Positions 6,659-38,970 are shown, counted from the stretch's first letter. The stretch is 64,000 nt of DNA from Pseudomonadota bacterium (GCA_041178225.1 JBEGVV010000024.1:7676-71675), one strand, 5' to 3'. Translations and numbers: made by a program. The notes: generated by a model not told the origin, from the sequence alone.

Positions 6659-7935
6659 TGGACCTCGTGGTCCGCGGCGCGGCGCTGCCCGATGGCCGCA
6701 AGGGCATGGACATCGGCGTGCGCGACGGGCGCATCGTCGCCGTGGAGCCGCGCCTCGCGGCCACGGGACGCGAGGAGATCGACGCGGGCGGCATGCTCGT
6801 CTCGCCGCCCTTCGTCGACGCCCATTTCCACATGGACGCGACGCTGTCGCTCGGCCTGCCGCGGCTCAACCGCTCGGGCACGCTGCTCGAGGGCATCGCG
6901 CTCTGGGGCGAGCTCAAGCCGACGCTGACGCAGGAAGCCGTCGTCGCCCGCGCCATGGCCTATTGCGACTGGGCCGCCGCGCAGGGACTGCTGGCGATAC
7001 GCAGCCATGTCGACGTCTGCGACGAGCGGCTGCTCGCGGTCGACGCGCTGCTCGAGGTCAGGCGCCGCGTCAGGCCGTACATCGACCTGCAGCTCGTCGC
7101 CTTCCCGCAGGACGGCGTGTTCCGCTACCCGCGCGCGATGGAGCTGCTGCGCGCGGCGCTCGACCGCGGCGTCGACGTCGTCGGCGGCATCCCGCATTTC
7201 GAGCGCACCATGGCCGAGGGCGCGCGTTCCGTCCGCGCGCTATGCGAGCTCGCGGCCGAGCGGGGCCTGCGCGTCGACATGCATTGCGACGAGACCGACG
7301 ACCCGATGTCGCGCCACGTCGAGACGCTGGCCTTCGAGGCGCAGCGCCTCGGCCTGCAGGGACGCGTCGTCGGCTCGCACCTCACCTCGATGCACAGCAT
7401 GGACAACTACTACGTCTCCAAGCTGGTGCCGCTGATGGCCGAGGCGGGCCTCGGCGTGGTCGCCAACCCGCTCATCAACATCTCGATCCAGGGCCGGCAC
7501 GACAGCTACCCGAAGCGGCGCGGCATGACCCGGGTGCCCGAGCTGATGGCGGCCGGGCTGACGGTCGCCTTCGGCCACGACTGCGTGATGGACCCCTGGT
7601 ACAGCCTCGGCACCGGGGACATGCTCGAGGTCGCCCAGATGGGCGTGCATGTCGCGCAGATGACCGGGCTCGACGCGATGGGTGCCTGCTTCGACGCCGT
7701 CACCTGCAACGCGGCGCGCCTGCTCGGCCTCGAGGGCTACGGGATCGAGCCGGGGTGCAACGCCGACCTCGTCCTGCTCGAGGCGCGCGACAAGGTGGAG
7801 GCGATCCGGACCCGCGCCGCGAGGCTCGCCGTCCTGCGCCGTGGCCGGGTCATCTCGCGCGCGCCGGCCCGGCGCGCGACGCTCGCCCTCGAGGGGCGGC
7901 CCGGGACGGTCGATTTCCTGCACCCGCGAGGCTGA
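6655..7935 (+). CDS. codA: Cytosine deaminase (amidohydrolase superfamily; CodA-type enzymes can also act as creatinine deaminases)
   Basis: Strong resemblance to E. coli CodA along the whole length (PPFVDAHFHMD, GTLLEGIALWGELK, HVDVCDERLLAVDALLEV, DLQLVAFPQDG, GGIPHFE, HCDETDDPMSRHVET, HSMDNYY, ANPLINISIQGRHDSYPKRRGMTRV, FGHDCVMDPWY). The ATG overlaps the permease stop. Confidence 0.85.
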   Translation: MMDLVVRGAALPDGRKGMDIGVRDGRIVAVEPRLAATGREEIDAGGMLVSPPFVDAHFHMDATLSLGLPRLNRSGTLLEGIALWGELKPTLTQEAVVARAMAYCDWAAAQGLLAIRSHVDVCDERLLAVDALLEVRRRVRPYIDLQLVAFPQDGVFRYPRAMELLRAALDRGVDVVGGIPHFERTMAEGARSVRALCELAAERGLRVDMHCDETDDPMSRHVETLAFEAQRLGLQGRVVGSHLTSMHSMDNYYVSKLVPLMAEAGLGVVANPLINISIQGRHDSYPKRRGMTRVPELMAAGLTVAFGHDCVMDPWYSLGTGDMLEVAQMGVHVAQMTGLDAMGACFDAVTCNAARLLGLEGYGIEPGCNADLVLLEARDKVEAIRTRAARLAVLRRGRVISRAPARRATLALEGRPGTVDFLHPRG

Positions 7936-7936
7936 G

Positions 7937-7955
7937 GGCTGCGCGATCCAGCGCA
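7937..7955 (+). terminator. Short hairpin immediately after the codA stop
   Basis: CTGCGC-gatcca-GCGCAG, a 6-bp stem with a 6-nt loop, starting 2 nt after the codA TGA. Weak and has no T-tract. Confidence 0.2.
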
Positions 7956-8032
7956 GGCGGGCCCGATGCCTGAGTCTTCCGGCGCGCCCGCTACCACCAG
8001 CGTGATGTCGGCAAGGCGCTGGCCGCGGCCCC

Positions 8033-8245
8033 ATGCTCGGTGGAATGACGACGCGATTCGCGATCCTGAAGGCGCGCGAGCTGGTCGACACCTACGGATT
8101 GCAGGCCGTCGACCTCGCCACGCTCGAGGGCGCGCATGCGATCACCCGCGGGGACCTGCTCCTGGCGAGGCGCTGGGCCGACACGCTGACGGCGGTGGAG
8201 AACCTGCTGGCGGCGCGCGCCCGCGCGGCCGGAAGGCTGAACTGA
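8033..8245 (+). CDS. Small hypothetical protein (70 aa), possibly a gene remnant
   Basis: GC3-rich ORF MLGGMTTRFAILKARELVDTYGLQAVDLATLEGAHAITRGDLLLARRW... with no convincing SD and no recognised domain. It ends at the AT-rich island. Confidence 0.2.
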   Translation: MLGGMTTRFAILKARELVDTYGLQAVDLATLEGAHAITRGDLLLARRWADTLTAVENLLAARARAAGRLN

Positions 8246-8320
8246 GCCCTTCCTCGTCCTTTTCCTGAACTTCAGGATATAGATCCAATCCATTGAAATG
8301 GATTGATTATCCTTCATTCC
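8246..8320. repeat. 75-bp AT-rich island (about 35% GC in a 70% GC context) carrying two different perfect palindromes, between convergent stop codons
   Basis: It contains TCCTGAAcTTCAGGA (8263-8277) and CAATCCATTgaAATGGATTG (8286-8305), plus a further half-site-like TTCCTCAGGATTCGG ending at the RACo stop (8321). Confidence 0.4.
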
Positions 8321-10348
8321 TCAGGATTCGGATGACCTGCGCCGGCCCGATCGCCGGCCCCGCCCGGCGCCGCCGCCATCGGCCGCCGGGGTCGCCGCCG
8401 GCAGGGCGATGCGCGTGGCAAGCCGCGCATAGGGATCCTCGGCATGGGGGATGGCCATGGCCGACACGAAATGGCGCTGGAAGTCCGGCTCGATGGCGGT
8501 CTCGACCTTCTCGATCCTGCGGACCAGGGCCTCGATCTCGCCCCGCGACCTGGCGTCGAGCAGCGCGATCCGCGCCCCCGTCCCCGCGGCGTTGCCGGCC
8601 GAGCCCACCCGGTCGGGATCGCAATCCGGGATCAGGCCGAGCGCCATCGCGTAGACCGGGTCGATATGGCTGCCGAAGGCGCCCGCCAGGGTGATCCGGT
8701 CGGGCGCCTCGATGCCGTAGCGGTCCATGAGCAGCCGCGCCCCGGCATGCAGCGCGGCCTTGGCCAGCTGGATCGCCCTTATGTCGGCCTGGGTGATGGC
8801 GATGCGCGGCCCCTCCTCGCGCAGCACGTAGCTGAAGGTCCGCCCCTCGGCGACGATGCGCGGGCTGCGCGCGGCGAGCGCGCCATCGATCGTGCCGTCG
8901 CGCGCGACGATGCCCGAGAGATGCATCTCCGCGATCGCCTCGATGATCCCCGACCCGCAGATCCCGGTGACGCCCGAGCGCGCGGTCGCCGCGGCGAAGC
9001 CGGGGTCGTCGGACCAGAGCGGCGAGCCGATCACCTGGAAGCGCGGCTCGAGGGTCTCGCGGTCGATGCGCAGCCGCTCGATCGCGCCGGGCGCGGCGCG
9101 CTGGCCGCAGGAGATCTGCGCCCCCTCGAAGGCCGGCCCGGTGGGAGAGGAGCAGGCGAGCAGCCGCGCGCGGTTGCCGAGCACGAGCTCGGCGTTCGTG
9201 CCAACGTCGACCAGCAGCACGACCTCGTCGCGCAGGTGCGGCCCCTCGGAGAGCACGACGCCCGACGCGTCGGCGCCGACATGGCCGGCGATGCAGGGCA
9301 GCAGGTAGACGCGCGCGCCGGGCGCGAAGGCGAGGCCGACGTCGCGCGCCTCCACGTCGTGCCCGCCATCGATCGCCAGCGCGAAGGGCGCGCCGCCGAG
9401 CTCGGTCGGGTCCAGGCCGAGGAAGAGGTGGTGCATGATCGGGTTGCCGACCACCGTGGCCTCGAGGATGTCCTCCGGCGACAGCCCGGCCTCGCGCGTC
9501 ACCTCGGCCGCGAGGCCGGCGAGCGCCTCGCGCACCAGCGCCGTGAGCTCGCGGTCGCCGCCGGGATGCATCATCACGTAGGAGACCCGGCTCATCAGGT
9601 CCTCGCCGAGCCGGATCTGCGGGTTCATCGCGCCCGCGGAGGCGAGCACGTCGCCGGTGGCGAGGTCGCAGAGATGCGCGGCGATCGTGGTCGAGCCGAT
9701 GTCGACCGCGAGCCCGTGGGCACGCTCGCGCAGGCCGGGCCAGAGCGCGACGATGTCGCGGCCGAGGCGCACGGCGGCGGTGACGCGCCAGCCGCCCGCG
9801 CGCAGCGTGCGCTGGAGCGAGGCGAGGATCGCGGGGCCGGCGGCGAGCCCCTTCAGGCCCCATTGCGCCTCCAGCGCGTCGAGCAGCCGGCGCAGGTCGC
9901 TCGACGGATCGTGCATGTCGGGCTCGGCGACCTCGACGTAGTGCAGGCGCACGACCGGGTCGACCGCGATCGCCCGCGCATCCGCCTCCTTGCGCACGAC
10001 CTGGCGATGGATCTGGCTCTCGGGCGGCACGTCGGCGAGCACGTCGCCGCATATGCGCGCCTGGCAGCCCAGGCGCCGCGCACCGTCGAGCCCGCCGCGC
10101 CGCTCCGCGTGGCGAAGCTCCGTCGCCTCGCGCGGGCCAGCATTGGCGGCGCGGGATTCGAGCCCGAGCTTGGGGAAGCTGCCCTCGGCCACGTCGACCT
10201 TGCAGCGCCCGCATATGCCGCGCCCCGCGCACACGGAATCGAGGTCGACGCCGAGGGCGCGCGCCGCATCGAGCAGGCTGGTGCCGTCGGCAAAGCGTCC
10301 CCTGCGCCCGGATGGCGTGAAGACGACGAGATGGTCCTGCGACGACAT
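8321..10348 (-). CDS. RACo-type reductive activator of corrinoid proteins (N-terminal 2Fe-2S ferredoxin plus ASKHA-fold ATPase, COG3894/DUF4445)
   Basis: Starts MSSQDHLVVFTPSGRRGRFADGTSLLDAARALGVDLDSVCAGRGICGRCKV (plant-type ferredoxin Cys motif), followed by a long ASKHA ATPase region (LAVDIGSTTIAAHL..., ICGSGIIEAIAEM...). The 100-aa Arg-rich upstream extension in the track ORF is rejected. Last gene of the corrinoid operon. Confidence 0.8.
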   Translation of the reverse strand: MSSQDHLVVFTPSGRRGRFADGTSLLDAARALGVDLDSVCAGRGICGRCKVDVAEGSFPKLGLESRAANAGPREATELRHAERRGGLDGARRLGCQARICGDVLADVPPESQIHRQVVRKEADARAIAVDPVVRLHYVEVAEPDMHDPSSDLRRLLDALEAQWGLKGLAAGPAILASLQRTLRAGGWRVTAAVRLGRDIVALWPGLRERAHGLAVDIGSTTIAAHLCDLATGDVLASAGAMNPQIRLGEDLMSRVSYVMMHPGGDRELTALVREALAGLAAEVTREAGLSPEDILEATVVGNPIMHHLFLGLDPTELGGAPFALAIDGGHDVEARDVGLAFAPGARVYLLPCIAGHVGADASGVVLSEGPHLRDEVVLLVDVGTNAELVLGNRARLLACSSPTGPAFEGAQISCGQRAAPGAIERLRIDRETLEPRFQVIGSPLWSDDPGFAAATARSGVTGICGSGIIEAIAEMHLSGIVARDGTIDGALAARSPRIVAEGRTFSYVLREEGPRIAITQADIRAIQLAKAALHAGARLLMDRYGIEAPDRITLAGAFGSHIDPVYAMALGLIPDCDPDRVGSAGNAAGTGARIALLDARSRGEIEALVRRIEKVETAIEPDFQRHFVSAMAIPHAEDPYARLATRIALPAATPAADGGGAGRGRRSGRRRSSES

Positions 10349-10362
10349 GGCCCGCGCGTGCC

Positions 10363-10671
10363 TCAGCCCTTCGCCGGCTCGCGCCCGCCAGCGGCGACGA
10401 GCGCGGCGAGCCGCGCGTCGTCGTAGTCGCGCTCGAAGGCGGCCGCGGCCTCGGCCGCCGCGGCCTCGAGGTCGTCGCCGCAGGGAACGGGCTCGGCGCG
10501 GCGCCACTCCGCCAGGTAGGCGTCGGTCTCGCGCGCGCCGCCGCGCATCGCCGCGCGGTCGATCGCGTCCTGGAAGCGCTGCGGCAGCTCGCGCTTCGCG
10601 TTCGCGCGCCCCGCCTTCGCGATCACCTGGGCAGGGATGTCGCGCCACCAGATCACCGTCAGCTGCGCCAT
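10363..10671 (-). CDS. Small conserved hypothetical protein (about 102 aa), often seen in corrinoid/methyltransferase clusters; possibly 'virulence factor' small-protein family
   Basis: MAQLTVIWWRDIPAQVIAKAGRANAKRELPQRFQDAIDRAAMRGG...EPVPCGDDLEAAAAEAAAAFERDYDD. The ATG at 10669-10671 overlaps the DUF1638 3' end, and there is a 14-bp gap to the RACo start. The family assignment is from memory and tentative. Confidence 0.5.
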   Translation of the reverse strand: MAQLTVIWWRDIPAQVIAKAGRANAKRELPQRFQDAIDRAAMRGGARETDAYLAEWRRAEPVPCGDDLEAAAAEAAAAFERDYDDARLAALVAAGGREPAKG

Positions 10672-11297
10672 GGCATGCCTCCGGGAAGCGTGGCGCCGGC
10701 GAGGAAGCGCGCGATGCCGCCGAGGCCAGTGGGCCGCACCTCCAGCGCGAGGCCGAGGCGGCCTGCCGCGGCGGCCGCGGCGTCGCGCAGCGCCGGGTCG
10801 TCGGCCTGCGCGAGGTAGACCACGCGCCGGTAGTTGCCGAAATAGTCGGGGAGCAGCTCGGGGTGGCGGTCGAGGCCGAGGCCGCGGATGACCAGCGCCT
10901 CGAAATGCCTGACCAGGTAGTCGGTCAGGTAGAAGGTGCCGGGCTCGGCGTCGTGCAGCGCCGCGAACTCCGCCTCTCCGGCATAGAACTCGTAGCAATG
11001 CGCGCCATCGATGCGCTCCACGCCCTCCTCCGCGAGCACGCGGTCGAGCATGCCGCCCGTCCCGCAATCGCCATAGAGGCAGAGCACGCGCTCGAAGCTC
11101 CCGCGCGCCTCGCGGATCCTGCCGCGCACCGCCTCGGGGATCCGCTGCGGGCGGTTATGCAGGTCGGCGGGCAGGCAGGCGAGCTCGACATGGCCCCAGC
11201 CATTGAGGCGGACCACCGCGAGCACCTCGCGCGCGAGCGCGCCGCAGGCGATGACGAGCGTACGCGGCGGGCCCGGATCCGCGCCGTCCGCGCTCAT
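10659..11297 (-). CDS. DUF1638 domain protein (accessory protein commonly encoded beside corrinoid proteins)
   Basis: MSADGADPGPPRTLVIACGALAREVLAVV...LCLYGDCGTGGMLDRVL...AHCYEFY... The start overlaps the corrinoid-protein stop by ATGA. Confidence 0.7.
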   Translation of the reverse strand: MSADGADPGPPRTLVIACGALAREVLAVVRLNGWGHVELACLPADLHNRPQRIPEAVRGRIREARGSFERVLCLYGDCGTGGMLDRVLAEEGVERIDGAHCYEFYAGEAEFAALHDAEPGTFYLTDYLVRHFEALVIRGLGLDRHPELLPDYFGNYRRVVYLAQADDPALRDAAAAAAGRLGLALEVRPTGLGGIARFLAGATLPGGMPWRS

Positions 11298-11989
11298 CCC
11301 GCCGCGCGCTGGTTGTGGCGGCGGCGGATGAGGTCCTTCGCGGTCTCCACCGTCACCGCGGCGTCGCGGCAATAGGCGTCGGCGCCGACCTGGCGCGCGA
11401 AGTCCTCGTTGAGGGGCGCGCCGCCGACGAGGACGATGTAGTCGTCGCGGATGCCCTTCTCCTTCATCGTGTCGATGACGACCTTCATGTAGGGCATCGT
11501 GGTCGTGAGCAGCGCCGACATGCCGATGATGTCCGGCTTGTGCTCCTCGAGGGCGGCCAGGTACTTCTCCACGGGATTGTTGATCCCGAGGTCGATCACC
11601 TCGAAGCCGGCGCCCTCCATCATCATGCAGACGAGGTTCTTGCCGATGTCGTGGATGTCACCCTTGACCGTGCCGATCACCATCTTGCCGATCTTCGGCG
11701 CGCCGGTCTCCGCGAGGAGCGGGCGCAGGATGGCCATCCCCGCCTTCATCGCGTTGGCGGAGAGCAGCACCTCCGGCACGAACAGGATGCCGTCGCGGAA
11801 ATCCTCGCCGACGATGCGCATGCCCTCCACGAGGGCCTTGGTCAGGACGTCGTAGGGCGTCCACCTGCGCGAGAGCAGGATCCGCACGCCCTGCTCGATC
11901 TCCTCCTTGAGGCCGTCATAGAGGTCGTCGTGCATCTGCTGCACGAGGTCGTCGTCGCCAAGCGCGTTGAGGTCGATTTCGTCCGACAT
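11294..11989 (-). CDS. Corrinoid (cobalamin-binding) protein of the methyltransferase-associated MtgC/MtbC/MttC type
   Basis: MSDEIDLNALGDDDLVQQMHDDLYDG... is the N-terminal B12-binding-2 helical cap. It is followed by a Rossmann B12-binding domain with the DxHxxG-like motif (GTVKGDIHDIGKNLV) and GMSALLTTTMPYMK. The 65-aa upstream extension in the track ORF is rejected. Confidence 0.8.
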   Translation of the reverse strand: MSDEIDLNALGDDDLVQQMHDDLYDGLKEEIEQGVRILLSRRWTPYDVLTKALVEGMRIVGEDFRDGILFVPEVLLSANAMKAGMAILRPLLAETGAPKIGKMVIGTVKGDIHDIGKNLVCMMMEGAGFEVIDLGINNPVEKYLAALEEHKPDIIGMSALLTTTMPYMKVVIDTMKEKGIRDDYIVLVGGAPLNEDFARQVGADAYCRDAAVTVETAKDLIRRRHNQRAAG

Positions 11990-12155
11990 GGTCGATAGCC
12001 ACCTGCCTGTGGACCGGGTGGATGTTTCTAGCCCAGCGATAAGCGGCTGTCGCGCGGTTTGCGTCGCCGACGCTTCCGGCTGCCGGGCGTTTCCGCCATG
12101 ATCACGCACGGTAAGGCCGGCGCGTCGCCGGCCGGCAAGCGGGGGAACACAGGGC

Positions 12156-14567
12156 ATGAAATCCCATGTGCGCGTCGTGGTCATCGGCGGTGGCGTGGTC
12201 GGCGCAAGCGTCCTCTACCACCTGACCAAGATCGGCTGGACCGACGCGATGCTGCTGGAGAAGCACGAGCTCACCTCGGGCTCGACCTGGCACGCGGCGG
12301 CCAGCGTCCACACCTACAACTCGGACGCCAACGTCTCGAAGCTGCAGAAGTACACGATCGACCTCTACCGCGAGATCGAGGCGATCTCCGGCCAGTCCTG
12401 CGGCATCCATGCCACCGGCAACATGGTCGTCGCCGCCAACCAGACGGTGCTCGACAACATCCGGATGATGCACAGCCGGGGCAAGTACCTCGGCCTCGAG
12501 ATGGAGCTCATCTCGCCAGAGGAGGCGCGGAAGCTCAACCCGCTGATCGAGCCATCGGAGTTCCTCGGCGCGCTGTGGCGCAAGGACGGCGGCCATGTCG
12601 ACCCCAACGGCGTCACGCAGGCCTACGCGATCGCCGCGCGCAAGGCGGGCGCGGAGGTGCACCGCTTCACGATGGTGAAGGAACTGCACCAGCGGCCGGA
12701 CGGCTCCTGGCGCGTCGTCACCGACAAGGGCGACGTGATCGCCGAGCACGTCGTCAACGCCGGCGGCCTCTGGGCCCGCGAGGTCGGCCGGATGGCCGGC
12801 GTCGAGCTGCCCGTGCTGGCGATGGAGCACATGTACATCGTCACCGAGGAGATGCCCGAGGTCGTGGCCCTCGAGCGCGAGCTGCTGCCGACCACCGACT
12901 ACTCCGGCGAGATCTACATGCGCCAGGAGGGCAAGGGCGTCCTCATGGGCACCTACGAGCGCGACTGCCGCGTCTGGTCCCCGGACACCACGCCGTGGGA
13001 CTTCAACATGCAGCTGCTGCCCGACGACCTCGACCGGCTCAGCCCGCATCTCGAGATCGGCTTCCGCCACTTCCCGGCGATCGGCCGCGCGGGCATCAAG
13101 AAGGTCGTGAACGGCCCCTTCACCTTCGCGCCAGACGGCAACCCGCTGGTCGGCCCGGTGCGCGGGCTGCGCAACTTCTGGAGCGCCTGCGGCGTCATGG
13201 CGGGCTTCGCCCAGGGCGGCGGCGTCGGCCTCGCCCTCTCGCGCTGGATGGAGCATGGCGAACCAGGCGCCGACCTCTTCGCGATGGACGTCTCGCGCTT
13301 CGGCAGCTACGCCACGCCGCGCTACACCCACGTGAAGGTGCAGGAGAACTACCAGCGCCGCTTCCGCATCGCCTTCCCGAACGAGGAGCTGCCGGCGGCG
13401 CGGCCGCTGCGCCGCACGCCGGTCTACGACCGGCTCAAGTCGCGCGGAGCGGTGTTCGGCGCCTCCTTCGGCCTCGAGACGGCGCTGTGGTACGCGCCTG
13501 AGGGAATGGAGGCGGCGGAGACGCCGACCTATCGCCGCTCCAACGCCTTCCCGGTCGTGCGCGAGGAATGCCTCGCCGTGCGCAACGACGTCGGCATCAT
13601 GGAGATCTCCGGCTTCGGCAAGTACGAGGTGTCGGGGCCCGGCGCCGAGGCCTGGCTCGACCACCTGCTCGCGTCGCGCATCCCGAAGCCCGGGCGCATG
13701 GTGCTCGCGCCGATGCTCAACGAGCGCGGCACGATCATGGGCGACTTCTCCCTGGCCCGCCTCGCCGCCGATCGCTTCCTGATGGTCGGCTCGGGCGCGG
13801 CGGAGGTCTTCCACATGCGCTGGTTCGAGCGCATCGGGATCCCGGCGGGCGTCCATGTCCGGCCGCTCCCCGGCGCCCTCACCGGCTTCATGGTCGCCGG
13901 CCCCCGCTCCAGGGAACTGCTCCAGCGCCTCGTGCGCGAGGACATCTCCAACGCCGCGTTCCGCTTCTTCGCCGTGCGCGAGATGGCGGTCGGGATGGTC
14001 CCCGCGATCGTCGCGCGCGCCAGCTACACCGGCGACCTCGGCTACGAGATCTGGACGACGCCGGACTTCCAGATGTCGCTGCACGAGGCGCTGGTCGAGG
14101 CGGGCAAGGATCTGGGCCTGCGCCATTTCGGCAACCGCGCGCTGATGTCGCTGCGGCTCGAGAAGGGCTATGGCGCCTTCCTGCGCGAGTTCCGCCCCGA
14201 CTACACGCCGGTGGAGAGCGGGCTCGACCGCTTCGTCGCCTACGACAAGCCCGGCTTCGTCGGGCGCGAGGCCGCGCTCAGGGACCGCGCGACGCCGCCG
14301 ACGCGCCGCCTCGTGCCGCTGGTGGTCGACACCGACGTCGAGGTCGTCGGCTACGAATCGATCCTCAAGGGTGGCGCGCCCGTCGGCCAGGTCACCTCGG
14401 GCGGCTACGCGCACTGGGCCGGCAAGAGCATGGCGATGGGCTACGTGGCCGCCGAGCACGCGGTCGACGGCGCGGAGTTCGAGATCCAGATCTTCGAGCA
14501 TGTCCGCAAGGCGCGCATCGCGATGACCCCGCTCTTCGACGCCAATGGCGGGCGACAGCGCAGCTGA
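12156..14567 (+). CDS. Dimethylglycine/sarcosine dehydrogenase-like flavoenzyme (FAD amine oxidoreductase with C-terminal GcvT-like THF-binding aminomethyltransferase domain), paralog 1
   Basis: 803 aa. Begins with the dinucleotide fold MKSHVRVVVIGGGVVGASVLYHL. SGSTWHAAA matches the covalent-FAD His motif of DMGDH/SARDH. The C-terminal GcvT fold has FTGDLGYEIW and a YAHWAGKSMAMGYV-type tail. Diverges from the corrinoid operon across a 166-bp intergenic region. Confidence 0.85.
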   Translation: MKSHVRVVVIGGGVVGASVLYHLTKIGWTDAMLLEKHELTSGSTWHAAASVHTYNSDANVSKLQKYTIDLYREIEAISGQSCGIHATGNMVVAANQTVLDNIRMMHSRGKYLGLEMELISPEEARKLNPLIEPSEFLGALWRKDGGHVDPNGVTQAYAIAARKAGAEVHRFTMVKELHQRPDGSWRVVTDKGDVIAEHVVNAGGLWAREVGRMAGVELPVLAMEHMYIVTEEMPEVVALERELLPTTDYSGEIYMRQEGKGVLMGTYERDCRVWSPDTTPWDFNMQLLPDDLDRLSPHLEIGFRHFPAIGRAGIKKVVNGPFTFAPDGNPLVGPVRGLRNFWSACGVMAGFAQGGGVGLALSRWMEHGEPGADLFAMDVSRFGSYATPRYTHVKVQENYQRRFRIAFPNEELPAARPLRRTPVYDRLKSRGAVFGASFGLETALWYAPEGMEAAETPTYRRSNAFPVVREECLAVRNDVGIMEISGFGKYEVSGPGAEAWLDHLLASRIPKPGRMVLAPMLNERGTIMGDFSLARLAADRFLMVGSGAAEVFHMRWFERIGIPAGVHVRPLPGALTGFMVAGPRSRELLQRLVREDISNAAFRFFAVREMAVGMVPAIVARASYTGDLGYEIWTTPDFQMSLHEALVEAGKDLGLRHFGNRALMSLRLEKGYGAFLREFRPDYTPVESGLDRFVAYDKPGFVGREAALRDRATPPTRRLVPLVVDTDVEVVGYESILKGGAPVGQVTSGGYAHWAGKSMAMGYVAAEHAVDGAEFEIQIFEHVRKARIAMTPLFDANGGRQRS

Positions 14568-21921: not shown

Positions 21922-23463
21922 ATGGAGACGACACGGACGGGCGGCACTGGCCGCGGCAGGGCGCGCGCGCGGGCCGGGCGCTCGGCCCCGGCGGCGCACC
22001 AGCCGCTGCCGCGCCTGTCGAATCGCTGGAAGCCGCTCGAGGTGCTGTCCGCGGAGCAGCTCGAGCGGATCGTCGACGCCGCCTTCCGCATCCTCCAGGA
22101 CGGCGGCCTCGAGATGCGCAGCGCGCGCGCCCGGCAGGCCTGCCGCCGCCATGGCTGCCTCGTCGACGAGGAGACGCAGGTCGTGCGGATGGGGCGCGAC
22201 GTCGTGGAGGCCATGCTGCGCCACGCGCCGGAGCGCTTCGTCCTGCATGCGCGCAACCCCGCGCGGCACCTGCATGTCGGCGGCGACGTCGTCAATTTCG
22301 GCCCGGTCGGCGGCGCGCCCCATGTCACCGACGCCGAGCGCGGCCGGCGCTACGGCGACCTCGAGGCCTTCCGCGACATCATCAAGGTGGCCAGCGCGCT
22401 CGGCGTTCTGCACTGGCAGGGCGGCATGGTCGTGGAGCCGGTCGACGTGCCGGTGCCGGTGCGCCACCTCGAGGCCTATCGCGCGCATGTCGAGCTCTCG
22501 GACCTCGTCTGGAGCTCGCGAGGCACGGGCGCGGTGCAGTCGATCGACGGGATCGCGATGTCGGCGATCGAGCACGGCACGACTCCCGAGGGCCTCGCGG
22601 CGCGGCCGACGCTTCTGTGCATCACCAACGTCAACTCGCCGCGGCGCGTCGACGAGGAGATCCTCGAGAGCGTGATGATCCTCGCCGAGCACGGCCAGTG
22701 CGTGGCCATCACGCCCTTCACGCTGATGGGCGCGATGGCGCCGATCACGCTGGCCGGCGCGCTCGCGCAGGGCGCGGCGGAGGCGCTGGGCATCATCGCG
22801 CTGTGCCAGATGGTGAGGCCGGGCACGCCCTGCGTCTTCGGCGCCTTCACCTCGAACGTCGACATGCGCACCGGCGCGCCCGCCTTCGGCACGCCCGAGT
22901 ACGTCAACGCGACGATCGCGAGCGCCCAGCTCGCGCGCCGCTTCCGCCTGCCCGTGCGGTCGAGCGCGCCCAACGCCAGCCCCTGCGTCGACGCCCAGGC
23001 CACCTGGGAGACCGCCTTCTCCCTCTGGGCCTCGGTGATGAGCCACAGCAACCTCGTCTACCACGCGGCGGGATGGCTCGAGGGCGGGCTGTCGGCGTCG
23101 ATGGAGAAGATCGTCGTCGACGCGGAGATGCTGCGCGGCTGGGCGGAGATCCTGAAGCCGGTCGACTTCACCGACGACGACATCGGCGTCGACGCGATCC
23201 TCGGGGTGCCGCCGGGCGGGCATTTCTTCGGCACGGCGCACACGCTCGCGCGCTACGAGACCGCCTTCTGGCGCCCGATCCTCTCCGACTGGTCGAACTT
23301 CGAGAACTGGCGCGACGCCGGCGCGCGGACGGCGACCGACCGCGCGGCCGCGATGTGGCGAGGACTGCGCGACGCCTATGTCCCGCCGCCGCTCGACCCG
23401 GCGATCCGCGAGGAGCTCGACGCCTATGTCGCCCGGCGGCGCGAGGAGCTCGGCGCGCGATGA
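21922..23463 (+). CDS. MttB-superfamily quaternary-amine:corrinoid methyltransferase, non-pyrrolysine type (glycine betaine MtgB-like), paralog 1
   Basis: 513 aa, uninterrupted with no in-frame TAG. Starts METTRTGG...NRWKPLEVLSAEQLERIVDAAFRILQDGGLE. Conserved MttB-family blocks ITPFTLMGAMAPITLAGALAQ and GAFTSNVDMRTGAPAFGTPEY. AGGAG SD upstream. Confidence 0.85.
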   Translation: METTRTGGTGRGRARARAGRSAPAAHQPLPRLSNRWKPLEVLSAEQLERIVDAAFRILQDGGLEMRSARARQACRRHGCLVDEETQVVRMGRDVVEAMLRHAPERFVLHARNPARHLHVGGDVVNFGPVGGAPHVTDAERGRRYGDLEAFRDIIKVASALGVLHWQGGMVVEPVDVPVPVRHLEAYRAHVELSDLVWSSRGTGAVQSIDGIAMSAIEHGTTPEGLAARPTLLCITNVNSPRRVDEEILESVMILAEHGQCVAITPFTLMGAMAPITLAGALAQGAAEALGIIALCQMVRPGTPCVFGAFTSNVDMRTGAPAFGTPEYVNATIASAQLARRFRLPVRSSAPNASPCVDAQATWETAFSLWASVMSHSNLVYHAAGWLEGGLSASMEKIVVDAEMLRGWAEILKPVDFTDDDIGVDAILGVPPGGHFFGTAHTLARYETAFWRPILSDWSNFENWRDAGARTATDRAAAMWRGLRDAYVPPPLDPAIREELDAYVARRREELGAR

Positions 23464-24275
23464 GCGGCTTCGTCGCGAATGCGCGGATGTACGCGGTCGC
23501 GCCCGCCGCCGAGGAGGCATGGCGCGCACTGCTCGCCCATGCCTGCGCCGAGGCCGGGCTCGCGCTCGCCTACATGCCCTATCCCGCGCCGCAGCCGCTC
23601 GAGGAGCTCTGGGCGCGGCCGGACCTCGGCGCGGTGTTCATGTGCGGCTATCCGATCGCGCTCGGCCTCGCGGAGGTGGTGCCGCTCGTCGCGCCGATCC
23701 CCGACGCGCCCTGGGCGGGCGGGCGGGCGGTCTATCGCAGCGACCTGATCGTGCATCGCGATTGCCCATGGCGATCGCTCGAGGACGGCTTCGGCGGCCA
23801 TGCGGGCTGGACGGTCGGGCATTCGCATTCCGGCTTCAACGCCTTCCGCCACCACCTGCTGCCCCATCGCAGCGCCGCGCGGCCGCGGCTCTTCGCGCGC
23901 ACGACCGGCGGCCTCGTCACCGCGCGGCGCATACTCGACGCGGTGGCCGCGGGCGAGATCGACATCGGCCCGCTCGACGCCTACTGGCACCTGCTGCTGC
24001 GGCGGCACCGCCCGGAGCTCGTCGCGCCCATACGCGTGCTCGAGAGCACGGCGACCGCCCCGGCACCCGCCATCGTCTGCGCGCCGGCAATGCCCGGCGA
24101 CGACGCGAGGCGCCTGCGCGCGGCCCTGGTCGCCGCGCCATCGCGCCCGTGGTTCCCGGCGCTCGCGCGCGAGCTCTGCCTCGCCGGCTTCGCGCCCGTC
24201 GCGCGCGAGGACTACGCGGCGACGCTGGCCTGGGACGCGGAGGCCCGCGCCGCCGGATACCCCGAGCCTGCGTGA
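23460..24275 (+). CDS. PhnD/SsuA-like periplasmic-binding-protein-fold protein without a signal peptide (cytoplasmic ligand-binding protein)
   Basis: MSGFVANARMYAVAPAAEEAWRALL... has the ARMY/AV N-terminus typical of PhnD-like proteins but no hydrophobic leader. The ATG overlaps the MttB1 stop (ATGA). Confidence 0.6.
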   Translation: MSGFVANARMYAVAPAAEEAWRALLAHACAEAGLALAYMPYPAPQPLEELWARPDLGAVFMCGYPIALGLAEVVPLVAPIPDAPWAGGRAVYRSDLIVHRDCPWRSLEDGFGGHAGWTVGHSHSGFNAFRHHLLPHRSAARPRLFARTTGGLVTARRILDAVAAGEIDIGPLDAYWHLLLRRHRPELVAPIRVLESTATAPAPAIVCAPAMPGDDARRLRAALVAAPSRPWFPALARELCLAGFAPVAREDYAATLAWDAEARAAGYPEPA

Positions 24276-25168
24276 TGGACAGGCGGCCCGCGATCGAATG
24301 GCCGACGATCGCGCTCGCCGCGGCGCTGCACGCGGCATGGATCGCGCTGTGCCTCTTCCACGCGTCGCTCCCGTGGTGGGCCTTCGCGGCCTGCGCGGCG
24401 GTCGTCTCGGCCTGGTTCTCGTCGCTCCAGCACGAGGCGATCCACGGCCACCCGACGCGCAGCGCGACGTTCAACCACGCCATCGCCTGCGCGCCGCTCT
24501 GGATCTGGCTTCCCTATTCGCGCTACCGCGACACGCACCTGCTCCACCATCGCGACCACAGGCTGACCGACCCGCTCGACGACCCGGAGAGCCGCTACGT
24601 CACCCCGGAGGACTGGGCCGCGCGCGGGCCGATCGGCCGGGCCGCGCTCCGCGCGCAGTCGACGCTGCTCGGCCGCCTCGCGATCGGCCCGGCATGGAGC
24701 GCGGCATCCTTCCTGCGCGCCGAATGGGCGAACCGGCGCGACCCGCGCATCGCCCGCGCCTGGGCCGCGCACCTGGCGCTGCTCCTTCCCTTCCTCGCGT
24801 GGACGCTATGGGCCTGCGGCGTCCCGGCCTGGCTCTACGTCCTCGGCTTCGTTCAGGGCGGCGGCGCGCTCGCCATGCTGCGCTCCTTCGCGGAGCACCG
24901 CGCGCATGGCGACCCGGCCCGGCGCACCGCGGTCGTCGAGAACGCGACGCTGCTGGGCCCCGTCTTCCTGTTCAACAACCTGCACGCCACGCACCACCGC
25001 TGGCCCGGCGTCGCCTGGTACAGGCTGCCCGCGCTCCATCGCGCGCGCCGCGACGAGCTGCTCGCCGCCAATGGCGGCCTCGCCTATGACGGCTACGGCG
25101 AGGTCGCCCGCCGCTTCCTGCTGCGCGCGCACGACCAGCCGGAGCACCCGCTCGGCCGCGCCCCCTGA
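24275..25168 (+). CDS. Membrane fatty-acid-desaturase-family di-iron protein (desaturase/hydroxylase/CrtW-like)
   Basis: Three His boxes (QHEAIHGH, HHRDHRLTD, NNLHATHHRWPGVAWYRLP) with TM segments between them. The ATG overlaps the upstream stop. Confidence 0.7.
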   Translation: MDRRPAIEWPTIALAAALHAAWIALCLFHASLPWWAFAACAAVVSAWFSSLQHEAIHGHPTRSATFNHAIACAPLWIWLPYSRYRDTHLLHHRDHRLTDPLDDPESRYVTPEDWAARGPIGRAALRAQSTLLGRLAIGPAWSAASFLRAEWANRRDPRIARAWAAHLALLLPFLAWTLWACGVPAWLYVLGFVQGGGALAMLRSFAEHRAHGDPARRTAVVENATLLGPVFLFNNLHATHHRWPGVAWYRLPALHRARRDELLAANGGLAYDGYGEVARRFLLRAHDQPEHPLGRAP

Positions 25169-29195: not shown

Positions 29196-31604
29196 ATGAA
29201 GTCCCATGCAAAGGCCGTCGTCATCGGTGGCGGCGTCGTCGGCGCGAGCGTCCTCTACCACCTGACCAAGGTGGGCTGGCGCGACGTCGTCCTGGTCGAG
29301 CGCTCGGAACTGACCTCTGGCTCGACCTGGCATGCCGCGGGAGGCATGCACACGATCAACGGCGACCCGAACGTCGCCAAGCTGCAGCAGTACACGATCA
29401 ACCTCTACAAGGAGATCGAGGAGATCTCCGGCGTGTCCTGCGGCGTGCACATCACCGGCGGGCTCATGCTCGCCGGCACCAGGACGCGCTACGACTGGCT
29501 GAAGATGGTCCATGCGCGCGGCCGCTACCTCGGCATGGACCTCGAGTTCGTCGACCTCGCCGAGGCCAAGCGCCTCTTCCCGCTCATGGAGACCAAGTAC
29601 TTCGTGGGCGCGCTCTACGACCCGATCGAGGGCCATGTCGACCCGTGGGGCGTCACCAACGCCTACGCCAAGGCCGCGACGATCCAGGGCGCGACGGTCG
29701 AGAAGCACAACCGCGTCGTCGAGCTGCTGCACCGGCCGGACGGCTCGTGGGACGTCGTGACCGAGAAGGGCACGATCCACGCCGAGCACGTCGTCAACGC
29801 GGGCGGCCTGTGGGCGCGCGAGGTCGGGCGCATGGTCGGCCTCGAGCTGCCCATCCTCGCGATGGAGCACCAGTACATCATCTCCGAGGAGATCCCCGAG
29901 GTCGCCGCCTCGGAGAAGGAGATGCTCCACATCGTCGATTCCGACGGCGAGATCTACATGCGCCAGGAAGGCAAGGGCATGCTCATGGGCACCTATGAGC
30001 GCGCCGGCGTGCCATGGTCCGAGCGCGACACGCCCTGGAGCTTCGGCCACGAGCTGCTCAACAACGACATCGACCGCATCGCCCCGTCGCTCGAGGTCGG
30101 CTTCCGCCACTATCCCGCGATCGAGAAGGCGGGCATCAAGAAGATCATCAACGGCCCCTTCACCTTCGCGCCGGACGGCAACCCGGTCATCGGCCCGGTC
30201 CGCGGCCTGAGGAACTACTGGGTCGCCTGCGGCGTGATGGCGGGGTTCAGCCAGGGCGGCGGCGTCGGGCTGTCGCTCGCGAACTGGATGGCGCACGGCG
30301 ATCCCGGCGCCGACATCTGGGGCATGGACGTCGCGCGCTTCGGCGACTGGGCGACGATGGCCTACACCAACGCGAAGGTGCGCGAGAACTACTCGCGGCG
30401 CTTCCGCATCCGCTTCCCCAACGAGGAACTGGCCGCGGCGCGCCCGCTCAAGACCACGCCCGTCTACGACCGCCTCAAGGCGGCCAACGCCGTCTTCGGC
30501 GACTACTGGGGCATGGAGCACGCGCTGTGGTTCGCGCCGCCGGGGACCGAGCCCGTCGAGGAGATCACCTTCCGGCGCTCGAACGCGCACCCGCATGTCG
30601 CGGCCGAGGTTAAGGCCGTGCGCGAGGGCGTCGGCCTCGTCGAGATCTCCAGCTACGGGAAGTTCGAGGTCGAGGGCCCCGGGGCGGAGGCGTGGCTGTC
30701 GCGCATGATGGCCAACCGCATGCCGGAGGCCGGGCGCATCGTGCTCACGCCGATGCTCAACGACCGCGGCAGGCTGATCGGCGACTTCACCATCGCGCGG
30801 ATCGCCGCCGACCGCTTCTTCCTCGTCGGCACGATGGCGGCGGAGCGCTTCTACCAGCGCTGGTTCGAGCGCCACATGCCGGCGACCGGCGTGGTCGCGC
30901 GTGCCTGCGCCAACGAATGGGTCGGGCTGTCGATCGCCGGCCCGCGCTCGCGCGCGCTGCTGCAGAAGCTCGTGCGCGACGACCTCTCGGCCTTCCCGTT
31001 CCTGTCCTTCCGCCGGATGGACATCGGCATGGCCCCGGCGATGGTCGGCCGCGTCTCCTTCACCGGCGACCTCGGCTACGAGATCTGGGTGAAGCCGGAG
31101 TACCAGCGCTACCTGCACGAACTGCTCCTCGATGCCGGGCGCGACGACGGCATCCGCCATTTCGGCGCGCGTGCCCTGCACTCCATGCGCCTCGAGAAGA
31201 GCTTCGGGACATGGGCGCGCGAGTACCGCCCGCTCTACGGGCCGGTCGAGGCCGGGCTCGGCCGCTTCGTGGCCTGGGACAAGCCGGACTTCGTCGGGCG
31301 CGCCGCGGCGCTGGAGGATCGGGCCAGCGGCGGCAAGCTGCGGCTCTGCGCCTTCCGGGTCGAGGCCGGCGACGCCGACGCCATCGGCGACGAGCCGATC
31401 TGGCATCGCGGCAAGCCGCTGGGCTGGGTGACGTCGGGCGGCTATGGCCACTCCGTGGGCGCGTCGCTCGCGCTCGGCTACGTGCCGCGGGACATCGCCT
31501 CGGAGGTCGACGGCTTCGAGGTCGAGATCATCGGCGAGCGCCGGCGCGCCACGCGCCTGCCCGAGCCCGCCTTCGACCCGAAGGGCACGAGGATGCGCGC
31601 ATGA
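29196..31604 (+). CDS. Dimethylglycine/sarcosine dehydrogenase-like flavoenzyme with C-terminal GcvT/THF domain, paralog 2
   Basis: 802 aa. Starts MKSHAKAVVIGGGVVGASVLYHL and contains SGSTWHAAGG (covalent-FAD His). About 65% identical to paralog 1 by eye. GGGGGAG SD upstream. The stop overlaps the MttB2 start (ATGA). Confidence 0.85.
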   Translation: MKSHAKAVVIGGGVVGASVLYHLTKVGWRDVVLVERSELTSGSTWHAAGGMHTINGDPNVAKLQQYTINLYKEIEEISGVSCGVHITGGLMLAGTRTRYDWLKMVHARGRYLGMDLEFVDLAEAKRLFPLMETKYFVGALYDPIEGHVDPWGVTNAYAKAATIQGATVEKHNRVVELLHRPDGSWDVVTEKGTIHAEHVVNAGGLWAREVGRMVGLELPILAMEHQYIISEEIPEVAASEKEMLHIVDSDGEIYMRQEGKGMLMGTYERAGVPWSERDTPWSFGHELLNNDIDRIAPSLEVGFRHYPAIEKAGIKKIINGPFTFAPDGNPVIGPVRGLRNYWVACGVMAGFSQGGGVGLSLANWMAHGDPGADIWGMDVARFGDWATMAYTNAKVRENYSRRFRIRFPNEELAAARPLKTTPVYDRLKAANAVFGDYWGMEHALWFAPPGTEPVEEITFRRSNAHPHVAAEVKAVREGVGLVEISSYGKFEVEGPGAEAWLSRMMANRMPEAGRIVLTPMLNDRGRLIGDFTIARIAADRFFLVGTMAAERFYQRWFERHMPATGVVARACANEWVGLSIAGPRSRALLQKLVRDDLSAFPFLSFRRMDIGMAPAMVGRVSFTGDLGYEIWVKPEYQRYLHELLLDAGRDDGIRHFGARALHSMRLEKSFGTWAREYRPLYGPVEAGLGRFVAWDKPDFVGRAAALEDRASGGKLRLCAFRVEAGDADAIGDEPIWHRGKPLGWVTSGGYGHSVGASLALGYVPRDIASEVDGFEVEIIGERRRATRLPEPAFDPKGTRMRA

Positions 31605-33136
31605 CCGAAAGGCGCGGGCGGCGCGAGAGGCAGGCGGCAGCCGGGCGCGACGCCGCGGCCGCGCAGCCCGCCGCGCAGCCGCGCCTGCCCTTCGCGCCGG
31701 TTCCGGCGGTCTCGGCGGACGAGCTGGAGGCCATCCACCTCGCCTCGCTCGGCATCCTCGAGGAGATCGGGATGGACATCCTCGACGAGGAGGCGCGCGG
31801 GATACTGCGCGCCGCCGGGGCGAGGACCGAGGCAGGGTCGCCGCGCGTGCGCATCGACCGCGGCGTGGTCGAGGCGGCGCTCGGCAAGGCGCCCCGCTCC
31901 TTCCGCCTGCACGCGCGCAACCCGGCCCGCGGGGTCGAGATCGGCGGCGACGCCGTGGCCTTCGGCTCGGTGGCGAGCGCGCCCAACGTCGCCGACCGCG
32001 CGCGCGGCCGCCGGCCGGGGAACCGCGCCGACTTCGACGACCTGCTGCGGCTGGTACAGGTCCTGCCCGCCGTCCATGTCGTCGCGGGATACCCGGTGGA
32101 ACCGGCCGACATCCACGCCTCGATCCGCCACCTCGACGCGCTGCTCGACATGCTGACGCTGACGGACAAGCCCATCCACGCCTACAGCCTGGGCAGGCAG
32201 CGCATCCTCGACGGCATCGAGATGGCGCGCATCGCGCGGGGCATCGACCGCGCCACGCTCGAGCGCGAGCCCTCCCTGTTCACGATCATCAACACCTCCT
32301 CGCCGCTGCGCCTCGACGAGCCGATGTGCATCGGCGTCATCGAGATGGCGCGCGCCAACCAGGCCGTCTGCGTCACTCCCTTCACCCTGGCAGGCGCGAT
32401 GGCGCCGGTGACGATCGCGGGCGCCGTGACGCAGCAGAACGCGGAGGCGCTGGCCGGGCTCGTCCTCGCGCAGGCCGCGCGCGAAGGCTCGCCCTTCGTC
32501 TATGGCGGCTTCACCTCGAACGTCGACATGAAGTCCGGCGCGCCGGCCTTCGGCACGCCGGAATACATGAAGGCGGCGCTGCTCGGCGGACAGCTCGCGC
32601 GCCGCTACGGCCTGCCCTACCGGTCCTCCAACGCCTGCGCCGCGAACACGCTCGACGCGCAGGCCGCCTACGAGAGCGTGTTCTCGCTCTGGGGCGCGAT
32701 CATGGGCGGCGCCAACCTGCTGATGCATGGCGCGGGATGGATGGAGGGCGGGCTGCAGGCCTCGTTCGAGAAGATGGTCCTCGACGCGGACCTGCTCGGC
32801 ATGGTGGCTGAGTTCCTCCGCCCGCTCGGCACCTCTCCAAGCGACCTCGCGGTCGACGCGATGCGCGAGGTCGGGCCCGGTGGCCATTTCTTCGGCTGCG
32901 CCCATACGCAGGCGCGCTATCGCACGGCGTTCTTCGCCCCGATGGTCTCCGACTGGCGCAACCACGAGGCCTGGCGCGAGGCCGGCTCCCCCGACGCCCA
33001 CGACGCGACCGGTCGCCTCTGGCGCGAGAAGCTCGCCGCCTATGCCGAGCCGCCGATGGATCCCGCGACCCGCGAGGAGCTCGAGGCCTTCGTCGCCCGC
33101 CGCAAGGCCGAGGGCGGCGTGAAGACGGATTTCTGA
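31601..33136 (+). CDS. MttB-superfamily quaternary-amine:corrinoid methyltransferase (non-Pyl), paralog 2
   Basis: 511 aa, uninterrupted. MTERRG...LPFAPVPAVSADELEAIHLASLGILEEIGMD. Conserved blocks VTPFTLAGAMAPVTIAGAVTQQNAEAL and GGFTSNVDMKSGAPAFGTPEY. Translationally coupled to DMGDH2. Confidence 0.85.
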   Translation: MTERRGRRERQAAAGRDAAAAQPAAQPRLPFAPVPAVSADELEAIHLASLGILEEIGMDILDEEARGILRAAGARTEAGSPRVRIDRGVVEAALGKAPRSFRLHARNPARGVEIGGDAVAFGSVASAPNVADRARGRRPGNRADFDDLLRLVQVLPAVHVVAGYPVEPADIHASIRHLDALLDMLTLTDKPIHAYSLGRQRILDGIEMARIARGIDRATLEREPSLFTIINTSSPLRLDEPMCIGVIEMARANQAVCVTPFTLAGAMAPVTIAGAVTQQNAEALAGLVLAQAAREGSPFVYGGFTSNVDMKSGAPAFGTPEYMKAALLGGQLARRYGLPYRSSNACAANTLDAQAAYESVFSLWGAIMGGANLLMHGAGWMEGGLQASFEKMVLDADLLGMVAEFLRPLGTSPSDLAVDAMREVGPGGHFFGCAHTQARYRTAFFAPMVSDWRNHEAWREAGSPDAHDATGRLWREKLAAYAEPPMDPATREELEAFVARRKAEGGVKTDF

Positions 33137-33139
33137 GCG

Positions 33140-35706: not shown

Positions 35707-35719
35707 CCGGGGCAAGGCG

Positions 35720-38898: not shown

Positions 38899-38968
38899 GC
38901 GCGAGTCGAGATTGACTCGCGCCGCGCCGCATACCTAACGTGTTTCCATGCGCGAACGTGGTTCACGT
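38899..38968. promoter_or_regulatory. Divergent SDR/IclR promoter region with two palindromic operator candidates
   Basis: GCGCGAGTC-gagatt-GACTCGCGC (38899-38922) is a perfect 9-bp inverted repeat. ACGTG-gtt-CACGT (38956-38968) ends 3 nt before the IclR ATG. Confidence 0.4.
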
Positions 38969-38970
38969 AC

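Follow-up and report, generated by a model that had tools for sequence, protein, structure and literature searches.

Aerobic cobalamin-dependent methyl transfer with a stand-alone carrier has been described in Alphaproteobacteria. The methionine synthase of Phaeobacter inhibens has three parts and is built on a stand-alone B12-binding protein (Price 2018); its system genes are PGA1_c13350, PGA1_c13340 and PGA1_c15200, the first of which encodes MtgC. A DUF1638 protein and a RamA-like protein containing both a ferredoxin and a DUF4445 domain are required for methionine synthesis, presumably for B12 reactivation, and their genes co-occur across Alphaproteobacteria (Price 2018). Genetic work has shown that MtgC, DUF1638 and the RamA-like activase together make up a single common core (Price 2018; Mausz 2025). 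Knockouts of mtgC and mtgD become methionine auxotrophs and no longer grow on glycine betaine, and the single MtgC of Ruegeria pomeroyi serves methionine synthesis as well as betaine demethylation (Mausz 2025). Here we analysed a stretch of 64,000 nucleotides from a Pseudomonadota bacterium (GCA_041178225.1, JBEGVV010000024.1:7676-71675; hereafter the window), in which a minus-strand operon at 8321-11989 encodes a corrinoid protein, a DUF1638 protein, a PF13769 protein and a RACo/RamA-like activase. We consider it likely that this operon supplies the cobalamin core of the modular methyltransferase system of aerobic Alphaproteobacteria, MtgBCD(E), also called the split methionine synthase, with MtgD encoded elsewhere and one MtgC acting as a hub for three MttB-superfamily paralogs.

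The genes of the described systems are not confined to one place. PF06253 proteins function as MtgB and their genes are scattered over the chromosome; the scattered genes of R. pomeroyi are SPO2160 (MtgC), SPO2162 (DUF1638), SPO2041 (RamA), SPO1863 (MtgD), SPO2108 and SPO2134 (Mausz 2025). Four mtgB genes and a single mtgC are present in P. inhibens. As many as seven MttB paralogs in one genome have been proposed to feed a single MtgC, and in Eubacterium limosum one corrinoid protein serves five MttB-type enzymes (noted in Mausz 2025). The original prediction for the window, made from the sequence alone, had taken for granted that in described systems a substrate methyltransferase is always encoded beside its cognate corrinoid protein. 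This premise is wrong, and given the scatter in R. pomeroyi and the one-for-five arrangement in E. limosum, the arrangement in the window is therefore not anomalous. The hub arrangement suggested there fares better, as such sharing has been shown or proposed for R. pomeroyi, P. inhibens and E. limosum and no other corrinoid gene lies by the MttB genes of the window; it is, however, an already published model for the orthologous system.

A codon model, trained on the sequence of the window (72% G+C), was used to call genes, and the 50 predicted proteins were scanned against Pfam, some of them also against NCBIfam. The operon consists of four tightly packed genes, all on the minus strand. The first, at 11294-11989, encodes an MtgC-type corrinoid (cobalamin-binding) protein of 231 amino acids with B12-binding_2 and B12-binding domains, the proposed shared methyl carrier. 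It is followed by the genes of the DUF1638 protein (10659-11297, 212 amino acids, PF07796) and of the PF13769 ('Virulence_fact') protein, a conserved cluster member of 102 amino acids (10363-10671). The last gene, at 8321-10348, encodes the predicted reductive activase of 675 amino acids, in which the domains Fer2, RACo_linker, Raco_middle and RACo_C_ter were recognized. The mtgC and DUF1638 genes overlap by 4 nucleotides (nt) and the DUF1638 and PF13769 genes by 13 nt, and 14 nt separate the PF13769 gene from the activase gene. The same four products are annotated in public gene calls on contigs that carry the identical proteins, in agreement with our own calls and with the four-gene operon first predicted. 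A palindromic hairpin at 8286-8305, just 3' of the activase stop codon, was picked up by a pattern scan as a terminator-like site and possibly terminates the operon.

Alignment of the corrinoid protein against PDB entry 1Y80 (E value of 1e-55) revealed that the motifs GDIHDIGKN (DxHxxG), SALLTTT (SxL) and VGGAPL (GG) are all retained, including the DxHxxG signature for which the original prediction had asked a proper alignment. The protein stands alone, with a PF02607 B12 cap and a PF02310 Rossmann B12 domain. It shares 84% identity with the cobalamin-binding protein of Sinorhizobium meliloti, which is encoded in the type of cluster named MtgBCDE plus reactivation modules (Mausz 2025). The S. 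meliloti neighbourhood comprises bmt (MtgE), MttB, C, DUF1638, the PF13769 'virulence factor', a MetV-like gene, MetF, MtgD and ASKHA. The window protein scores below the cut-offs of the NCBIfam MtgC models (206.5 vs 370 for NF047996 and 179.5 vs 310 for NF047995); the aerobic MtgC has been placed in a clade separate from the anaerobic one (Mausz 2025). Based on the S. meliloti cluster and conserved synteny, the corrinoid protein is best assigned to the MtgC clade characterised in Alphaproteobacteria.

A scan of species-representative genomes yielded at least 80 MtgC loci, with 81-98% identity to the window MtgC, which were annotated by tblastn with the proteins of the window and of the S. meliloti cluster. 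Sequence of 8 kb or more 3' of mtgC is available for 64 loci. In this set, DUF1638 is present in 58, PF13769 in 52 (about four-fifths), RACo in 51 and MtgD in 51, and mtgD lies directly upstream of the activase gene in 47. Neither MtgD nor RACo is found within 10 kb of MtgC in 13 of these 64 loci; dispersal of these genes is therefore common. An activase gene without MtgD occurs, within the same set, only in the window lineage (L009 and L012) and in a Hyphomicrobiaceae metagenome-assembled genome (MAG; L046). L001-L006, L113 and L114 share the MtgD-less arrangement, as do the short contigs L010 and L011 over the length available. The members of this lineage are uncultured Alphaproteobacteria, mostly from freshwater lakes, with a GC content of 68-73%, and throughout it (L001-L006, L009-L012, L113 and L114) the PF13769 and RACo genes are 14-26 nt apart. 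In L046 (6506-12906), PF13769 adjoins RACo without MtgD independently, divergent from MtgE-C-DUF1638-MttB.

The nearest MtgD-bearing relatives, L115 (GCA_054014415.1) and L118, both from uncultured Alphaproteobacteria, carry a contiguous operon of eight genes in the order C-DUF1638-PF13769-MetF-MetV(DUF5981)-MetF-MtgD-RACo. Similar to the window operon, the L115 operon has the same genes at its two ends in the same order and orientation, and in each operon the PF13769 gene overlaps the DUF1638 gene. The encoded proteins are 73% (PF13769), 70% (RACo) and 66% (DUF1638) identical between the two. The window lineage, in contrast, lacks the four middle genes and has another genomic context, whereas the L115 and L118 operons lie among the housekeeping genes AhpC, TPR_21, BamB-like and Der. 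No remnants of the four middle genes were found in the 14 nt between the PF13769 and activase genes of the window. The C-DUF1638-PF13769-RACo operon would most simply have derived from the eight-gene operon by loss of metF-metV-metF-mtgD. MtgD, the PF00809 protein that normally acts as acceptor enzyme, is encoded in most relatives in the interval from PF13769 to the activase gene, a place from which it is gone in this lineage. Within the MtgD-less lineage, purifying selection acts on all four remaining genes, with ratios of nonsynonymous to synonymous substitution rates (dN/dS) of 0.03-0.30 (0.03-0.12 for mtgC), and the module is therefore in use. A reading of the operon as a decayed remnant was rejected on the same ratios and on the intactness of all its open reading frames (ORFs).

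An extra MtgC, 85% identical to that of the window, was found on plasmid pAA02 of Aminobacter aminovorans (L008, 11507-19697). The gene order there is MttB, SBP, MtgC, MR/MLE, FAD oxidoreductase and P5C-reductase-like, with no DUF1638 or RACo. The cluster looks like a plasmid-borne catabolic module that leans on chromosomal reactivation genes, possibly with proline betaine as the substrate.

The folate-side genes were searched for by six-frame tblastn at a permissive threshold (E < 1) with MtgD, MetF, MetV, MtgE and MtgC as queries over the window plus 10 kb at each end, 84 kb in total. None of the five queries gave a further match there, and the Pfam scan revealed no PF00809 (pterin-binding), MtrH, MTHFR or second B12-binding gene among the 50 predicted genes. 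The absence of a methylcorrinoid:tetrahydrofolate methyltransferase from the window, which the original prediction had pointed out, therefore holds in both searches and extends 10 kb beyond the window. An MtgA/MtqA-type methyltransferase was likewise missing from the Pfam scan of the 50 genes, though MtgA and MtqA were not among the six-frame queries. A homology search with the Inquilinus MtgD as the query gave more than 8000 matches, and the 120 listed were all at least 84% identical to the query. The choice of candidates for the MtgD of this organism was guided by their source and cluster size, by amino-acid composition and by how similar they were to the nearest relative. P0011, P0017, P0069, P0083 and P0096 were rejected, as they come from other organisms (different samples or assemblies); the GC content of their sources is 67-69%, where computed, vs 72%, and their activase identity is just 64-70%. 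Because mtgD is essential in the characterised ortholog, the genes of the system are often dispersed and selection has been kept on the remaining genes, we infer that MtgD is encoded elsewhere in this genome.

The activase matches RACo of Carboxydothermus hydrogenoformans (PDB 3ZYY) end to end with an E value of 1e-88, and comprises an N-terminal 2Fe-2S ferredoxin domain and an ASKHA ATPase. It scores below the equivalog cut-offs of AcsV (365.8 vs 800) and of RamA (TIGR04270, 115 vs 500), and its Pfam architecture is complete. The DUF1638 protein was assigned by PF07796 with an E value of 7e-28. Across 71 loci (46-84% identity), its residues Cys18, Cys41, Cys78, Cys101, His47, His100 and Asp126 are invariant, and in the structural model Cys18, Cys41 and Cys78 are located at or just past the C-terminal ends of β-strands. 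This arrangement of cysteines suggests a metal or iron-sulfur site in the modelled protein. DUF1638 is genetically linked to B12-dependent methyl transfer and probably acts as an accessory factor. The PF13769 protein is near-constant in the MtgC/MtgD/RACo neighbourhood, where its gene either overlaps the DUF1638 gene or is the first gene before MetV-MetF-MtgD-RACo; besides the window copy, examples are found at 18939-19241 in L007 and at 10001-10303 in L115. It is often translationally coupled to DUF1638. A confident AlphaFold2 (AF2) model of the PF13769 protein has no fold relative in the PDB, and the family is not mentioned in Price 2018 or Mausz 2025. An accessory role might be proposed for this protein as well.

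Three MttB-superfamily paralogs of the non-pyrrolysine type, candidate substrate:corrinoid methyltransferases, are encoded on the plus strand 10-22 kb from the operon, where the original prediction had located them. All were identified by PF06253: paralog 1 at 21922-23463 (E value of 3e-182), paralog 2 at 31601-33136 (5e-196), directly 3' of a second DMGDH-like gene at 29196-31604, and paralog 3 at 34222-35706 (9e-189), between 2OG-Fe(II) oxygenase and acyl-CoA dehydrogenase genes. Their ORFs of 494-513 codons are uninterrupted and contain no pyrrolysine. The paralogs are 46-54% identical among themselves, with paralog 1 being 46-47% identical to the other two, and the best PDB match of paralog 2 is 4YYC (E value of 2e-102), followed by MtgB of Desulfitobacterium hafniense (9YCE, 4e-87). 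In the latter enzyme, glycine betaine is bound by Tyr97, Arg312, His348 and Phe356 (Picking 2026). The carboxylate-binding residues Arg312 and His348 are kept in all three window paralogs, and Phe356 is replaced by glycine. The position of Tyr97 is occupied by glycine in paralog 1, alanine in paralog 2 and serine in paralog 3, whereas it remains tyrosine in the MttB type that usually neighbours mtgC. As Arg312 and His348 are kept while Tyr97 is replaced, the substrates might be quaternary amines that bear a carboxylate but differ from glycine betaine. None of the three MttB genes has a corrinoid gene beside it in the Pfam scans of the window genes or in the tblastn search over 84 kb.

The gene neighbours of the MttB paralogs fit betaine catabolism without identifying the substrates. 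Paralog 1 is apparently co-transcribed with genes of a 271-residue PhnD-like protein (PF12974) and a 298-residue fatty-acid-desaturase-like protein (PF00487) at 21922-25168, with overlaps of 4 nt each, an unusual partnership for an MttB enzyme. An apparent operon at 29196-36874 comprises the genes of the DMGDH-like protein, MttB paralog 2, the 2OG-Fe(II) oxygenase, MttB paralog 3 and the acyl-CoA dehydrogenase. With two MttB enzymes encoded in it, this operon may serve to demethylate a single substrate, or related ones, in successive steps.

Divergent from mtgC, the plus-strand gene at 12168-14567 (public start 12156) encodes a DMGDH-like FAD oxidoreductase that includes a folate-binding GcvT domain (Pfam DAO, FAO_M, GCV_T and GCV_T_C), which matches mammalian DMGDH over its full length with an E value of 1e-172. 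Throughout the lineage this gene occupies the place taken, at 45 of the 75 related loci with at least 3 kb of sequence 5' of mtgC, by a divergent MttB upstream of that gene. Downstream demethylation genes are commonly adjacent to mtgBCD (Mausz 2025), and the DMGDH-like protein likely performs a downstream N-demethylation step rather than accepting the corrinoid methyl group. The two start codons are 166 or 178 bp apart, depending on whether the DMGDH-like gene begins at 12156 or 12168, and the intergenic region at 11990-12167, presumably a shared regulatory region, contains conserved blocks. GATCATG, CGCGACA and GCTA are invariant there in five members of the lineage, possibly as operator or promoter elements, and there is no regulator gene nearby. 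Riboswitch control of the operon was rejected, as a scan of the whole window at gathering thresholds gave no Rfam match and no B12 or S-adenosylmethionine riboswitch. A sigma-70 promoter scan of 7900-12300 found no site, a result that is uninformative at 72% GC.

Based on the domain content, orthology, synteny and selection described above, we propose a catalytic cycle for this system. MtgC would carry the cobalamin. An MttB-family enzyme would move a methyl group from a quaternary amine of the betaine type to Co(I)-MtgC, and the pterin-binding MtgD, presumably encoded elsewhere, would pass it from MtgC to tetrahydrofolate. Working in reverse, MtgD would supply methionine synthesis through MtgE. 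Upon accidental oxidation of the cobalt to Co(II), the ferredoxin-ASKHA activase would re-reduce the cofactor with ATP, while the DUF1638 and PF13769 proteins might assist in cofactor maintenance or in an assembly step. One MtgC would serve as the hub for the three MttB paralogs of the window.

Several observations weigh against this proposal. MtgD (PF00809), MetF and MtgE were not found by six-frame tblastn in the 84 kb around the operon, all five targeted MtgD candidates belong to other organisms, and the acceptor step in this organism is a presumption. The orthology of MtgC to SPO2160 of R. pomeroyi and PGA1_c13350 of P. inhibens is indirect, through the S. meliloti cluster and synteny. In addition, the window MttBs are just 38-45% identical to the usual mtgC-neighbour type (38% for paralog 1) and all three lack the aromatic residue Tyr97 of the glycine-betaine site; any substrate assigned to them, or pairing with this MtgC, is conjectural.

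The genomic context of the operon raises the possibility of a duplicated core. The eight-gene operon of the relatives lies in a housekeeping context, while the window copy is located among DMGDH, MttB, transporter and amidohydrolase genes. The operon might accordingly be a second core copy dedicated to catabolism, with MtgD and MetF supplied in trans by a complete housekeeping eight-gene operon elsewhere. Extra MtgC copies do exist in catabolic clusters, as in the MttB-SBP-C-MR/MLE-FAD oxidoreductase cluster of Aminobacter pAA02 and in Mesorhizobium (L061 and L062), but the known ones come without a DUF1638, PF13769 and RACo of their own, all three of which are present in the window operon. 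Among the matches listed, each MAG of the lineage has one MtgC locus, which is weak evidence against a second copy. We consider such a duplication unlikely, yet a real possibility. A restriction of the operon to methionine synthesis as a split MetH, with the three MttBs using a corrinoid protein encoded outside the window, is improbable. The same core is indeed the methionine synthase of P. inhibens, and the MttB genes lie in separate operons 10-22 kb off; however, the operon is divergently paired with the DMGDH-like gene inside a catabolic island, no corrinoid gene accompanies the MttBs, and the single MtgC of R. pomeroyi has both roles.

A true loss of MtgD would leave the methyl group to a non-folate or unexpected acceptor, for instance homocysteine by way of an MtgE-type enzyme, or the GcvT domain of the DMGDH-like protein. 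The failure to find PF00809, the purifying selection on the four genes after the loss and the DMGDH-like gene beside mtgC in place of the usual divergent MttB would all agree with it. However, the search for PF00809 covered only 84 kb, neither role of the characterised ortholog is fulfilled without MtgD, and its gene is often unlinked to mtgC. The folate domain of the DMGDH family takes up an oxidised one-carbon unit and not a methyl group from cobalt. The neighbouring protein is an ordinary full-length homolog, and the idea that it is the methyl acceptor, or that its GcvT domain bears on the acceptor step, as the original prediction had suggested, is unsupported. Nor is there evidence for the unexpected partner invoked there; the normal acceptor enzyme is MtgD. 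A true loss is therefore very improbable in our view. Equally little credence can be given to a more far-reaching version, in which the lineage has no MtgD at all, a non-pterin partner unloads the methyl groups that MtgC receives from three MttBs not specific for glycine betaine, and DUF1638 with its invariant cysteines and PF13769 with its orphan fold take part directly in transfer or cofactor handling.

The wider surroundings of the operon look like a nitrogen-compound catabolic island. The region at 39776-63756 is rich in genes for amide and N-heterocycle catabolism, including hydantoinase A/B, a DMFase-like protein (DMFA2_C), an amidase and Asp/Glu/hydantoin racemases, and also carries three Opp/Dpp-type ABC transporters. 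Upstream of hydantoinase A/B, a gap in the codon-model list at about 38965-39750 apparently encodes an IclR-type regulator, as judged by eye (VLEILEFLTRGD...LADVVAELGLPKSSAHALMRTL). Neither Pfam nor NCBIfam matches the 642-residue protein encoded at 1-1929, whose N-terminus resembles a signal peptide and whose gene lies upstream of those for a BMP-family ABC transporter and for a cytosine-deaminase-like amidohydrolase. Between the amidohydrolase and activase genes, at 8045-8245, a small ORF of 66-70 amino acids has no family match either and is present in the public gene sets of every lineage contig.

Taken as the cobalamin core of an MtgBCD(E) system, the window operon is a gene-order variant of a known system in a new lineage, from which metF-metV-metF-mtgD have been lost. 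It adds a freshwater-lake lineage of Alphaproteobacteria to a system so far known mainly from marine bacteria and rhizobia, and demonstrates that the cobalamin core can persist under selection as a compact operon of four genes without the folate-side genes. Two leads emerge in addition, neither of which alters the understanding of the system. One is PF13769, which is frequent, coupled to DUF1638, absent from both key papers and without a solved fold relative; the other is the MttB paralogs, in which the carboxylate-binding residues are kept and the glycine-betaine aromatic is gone, pointing to other betaine-type substrates.

Comparison with the known systems places the locus as follows. RACo of C. 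hydrogenoformans (PDB 3ZYY and 4C1N) and RamA of Methanosarcina are ATP-dependent reductive activases of corrinoid proteins, and the window activase shares the four-domain architecture of RACo; it differs in scoring below the AcsV and RamA cut-offs and in having an MtgC-type partner instead of CoFeSP. In the MtgB-MtgC-MtgA system of D. hafniense and the MtpB/MtcB/MtyB-MtqA systems of E. limosum, similar to what is proposed here, an MttB-family enzyme loads a corrinoid protein with the methyl group, which a second methyltransferase then passes on to tetrahydrofolate, and in E. limosum one corrinoid protein is common to several MttB enzymes. Unlike in these anaerobic systems, the corrinoid protein of the window falls below the NCBIfam MtgC cut-offs, and the unloading enzyme of aerobes is the PF00809 protein MtgD. 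From the aerobic MtgBCD(E) systems the window differs by the lack of MtgD and MetF in the operon and the surrounding 84 kb, by a DMGDH-like gene in place of the divergent MttB, and by MttB paralogs without the Tyr97 of the glycine-betaine site. It resembles them in its stand-alone corrinoid protein, its DUF1638 protein, its ferredoxin-ASKHA activase, its several unlinked PF06253 paralogs and the DMGDH-type genes nearby.

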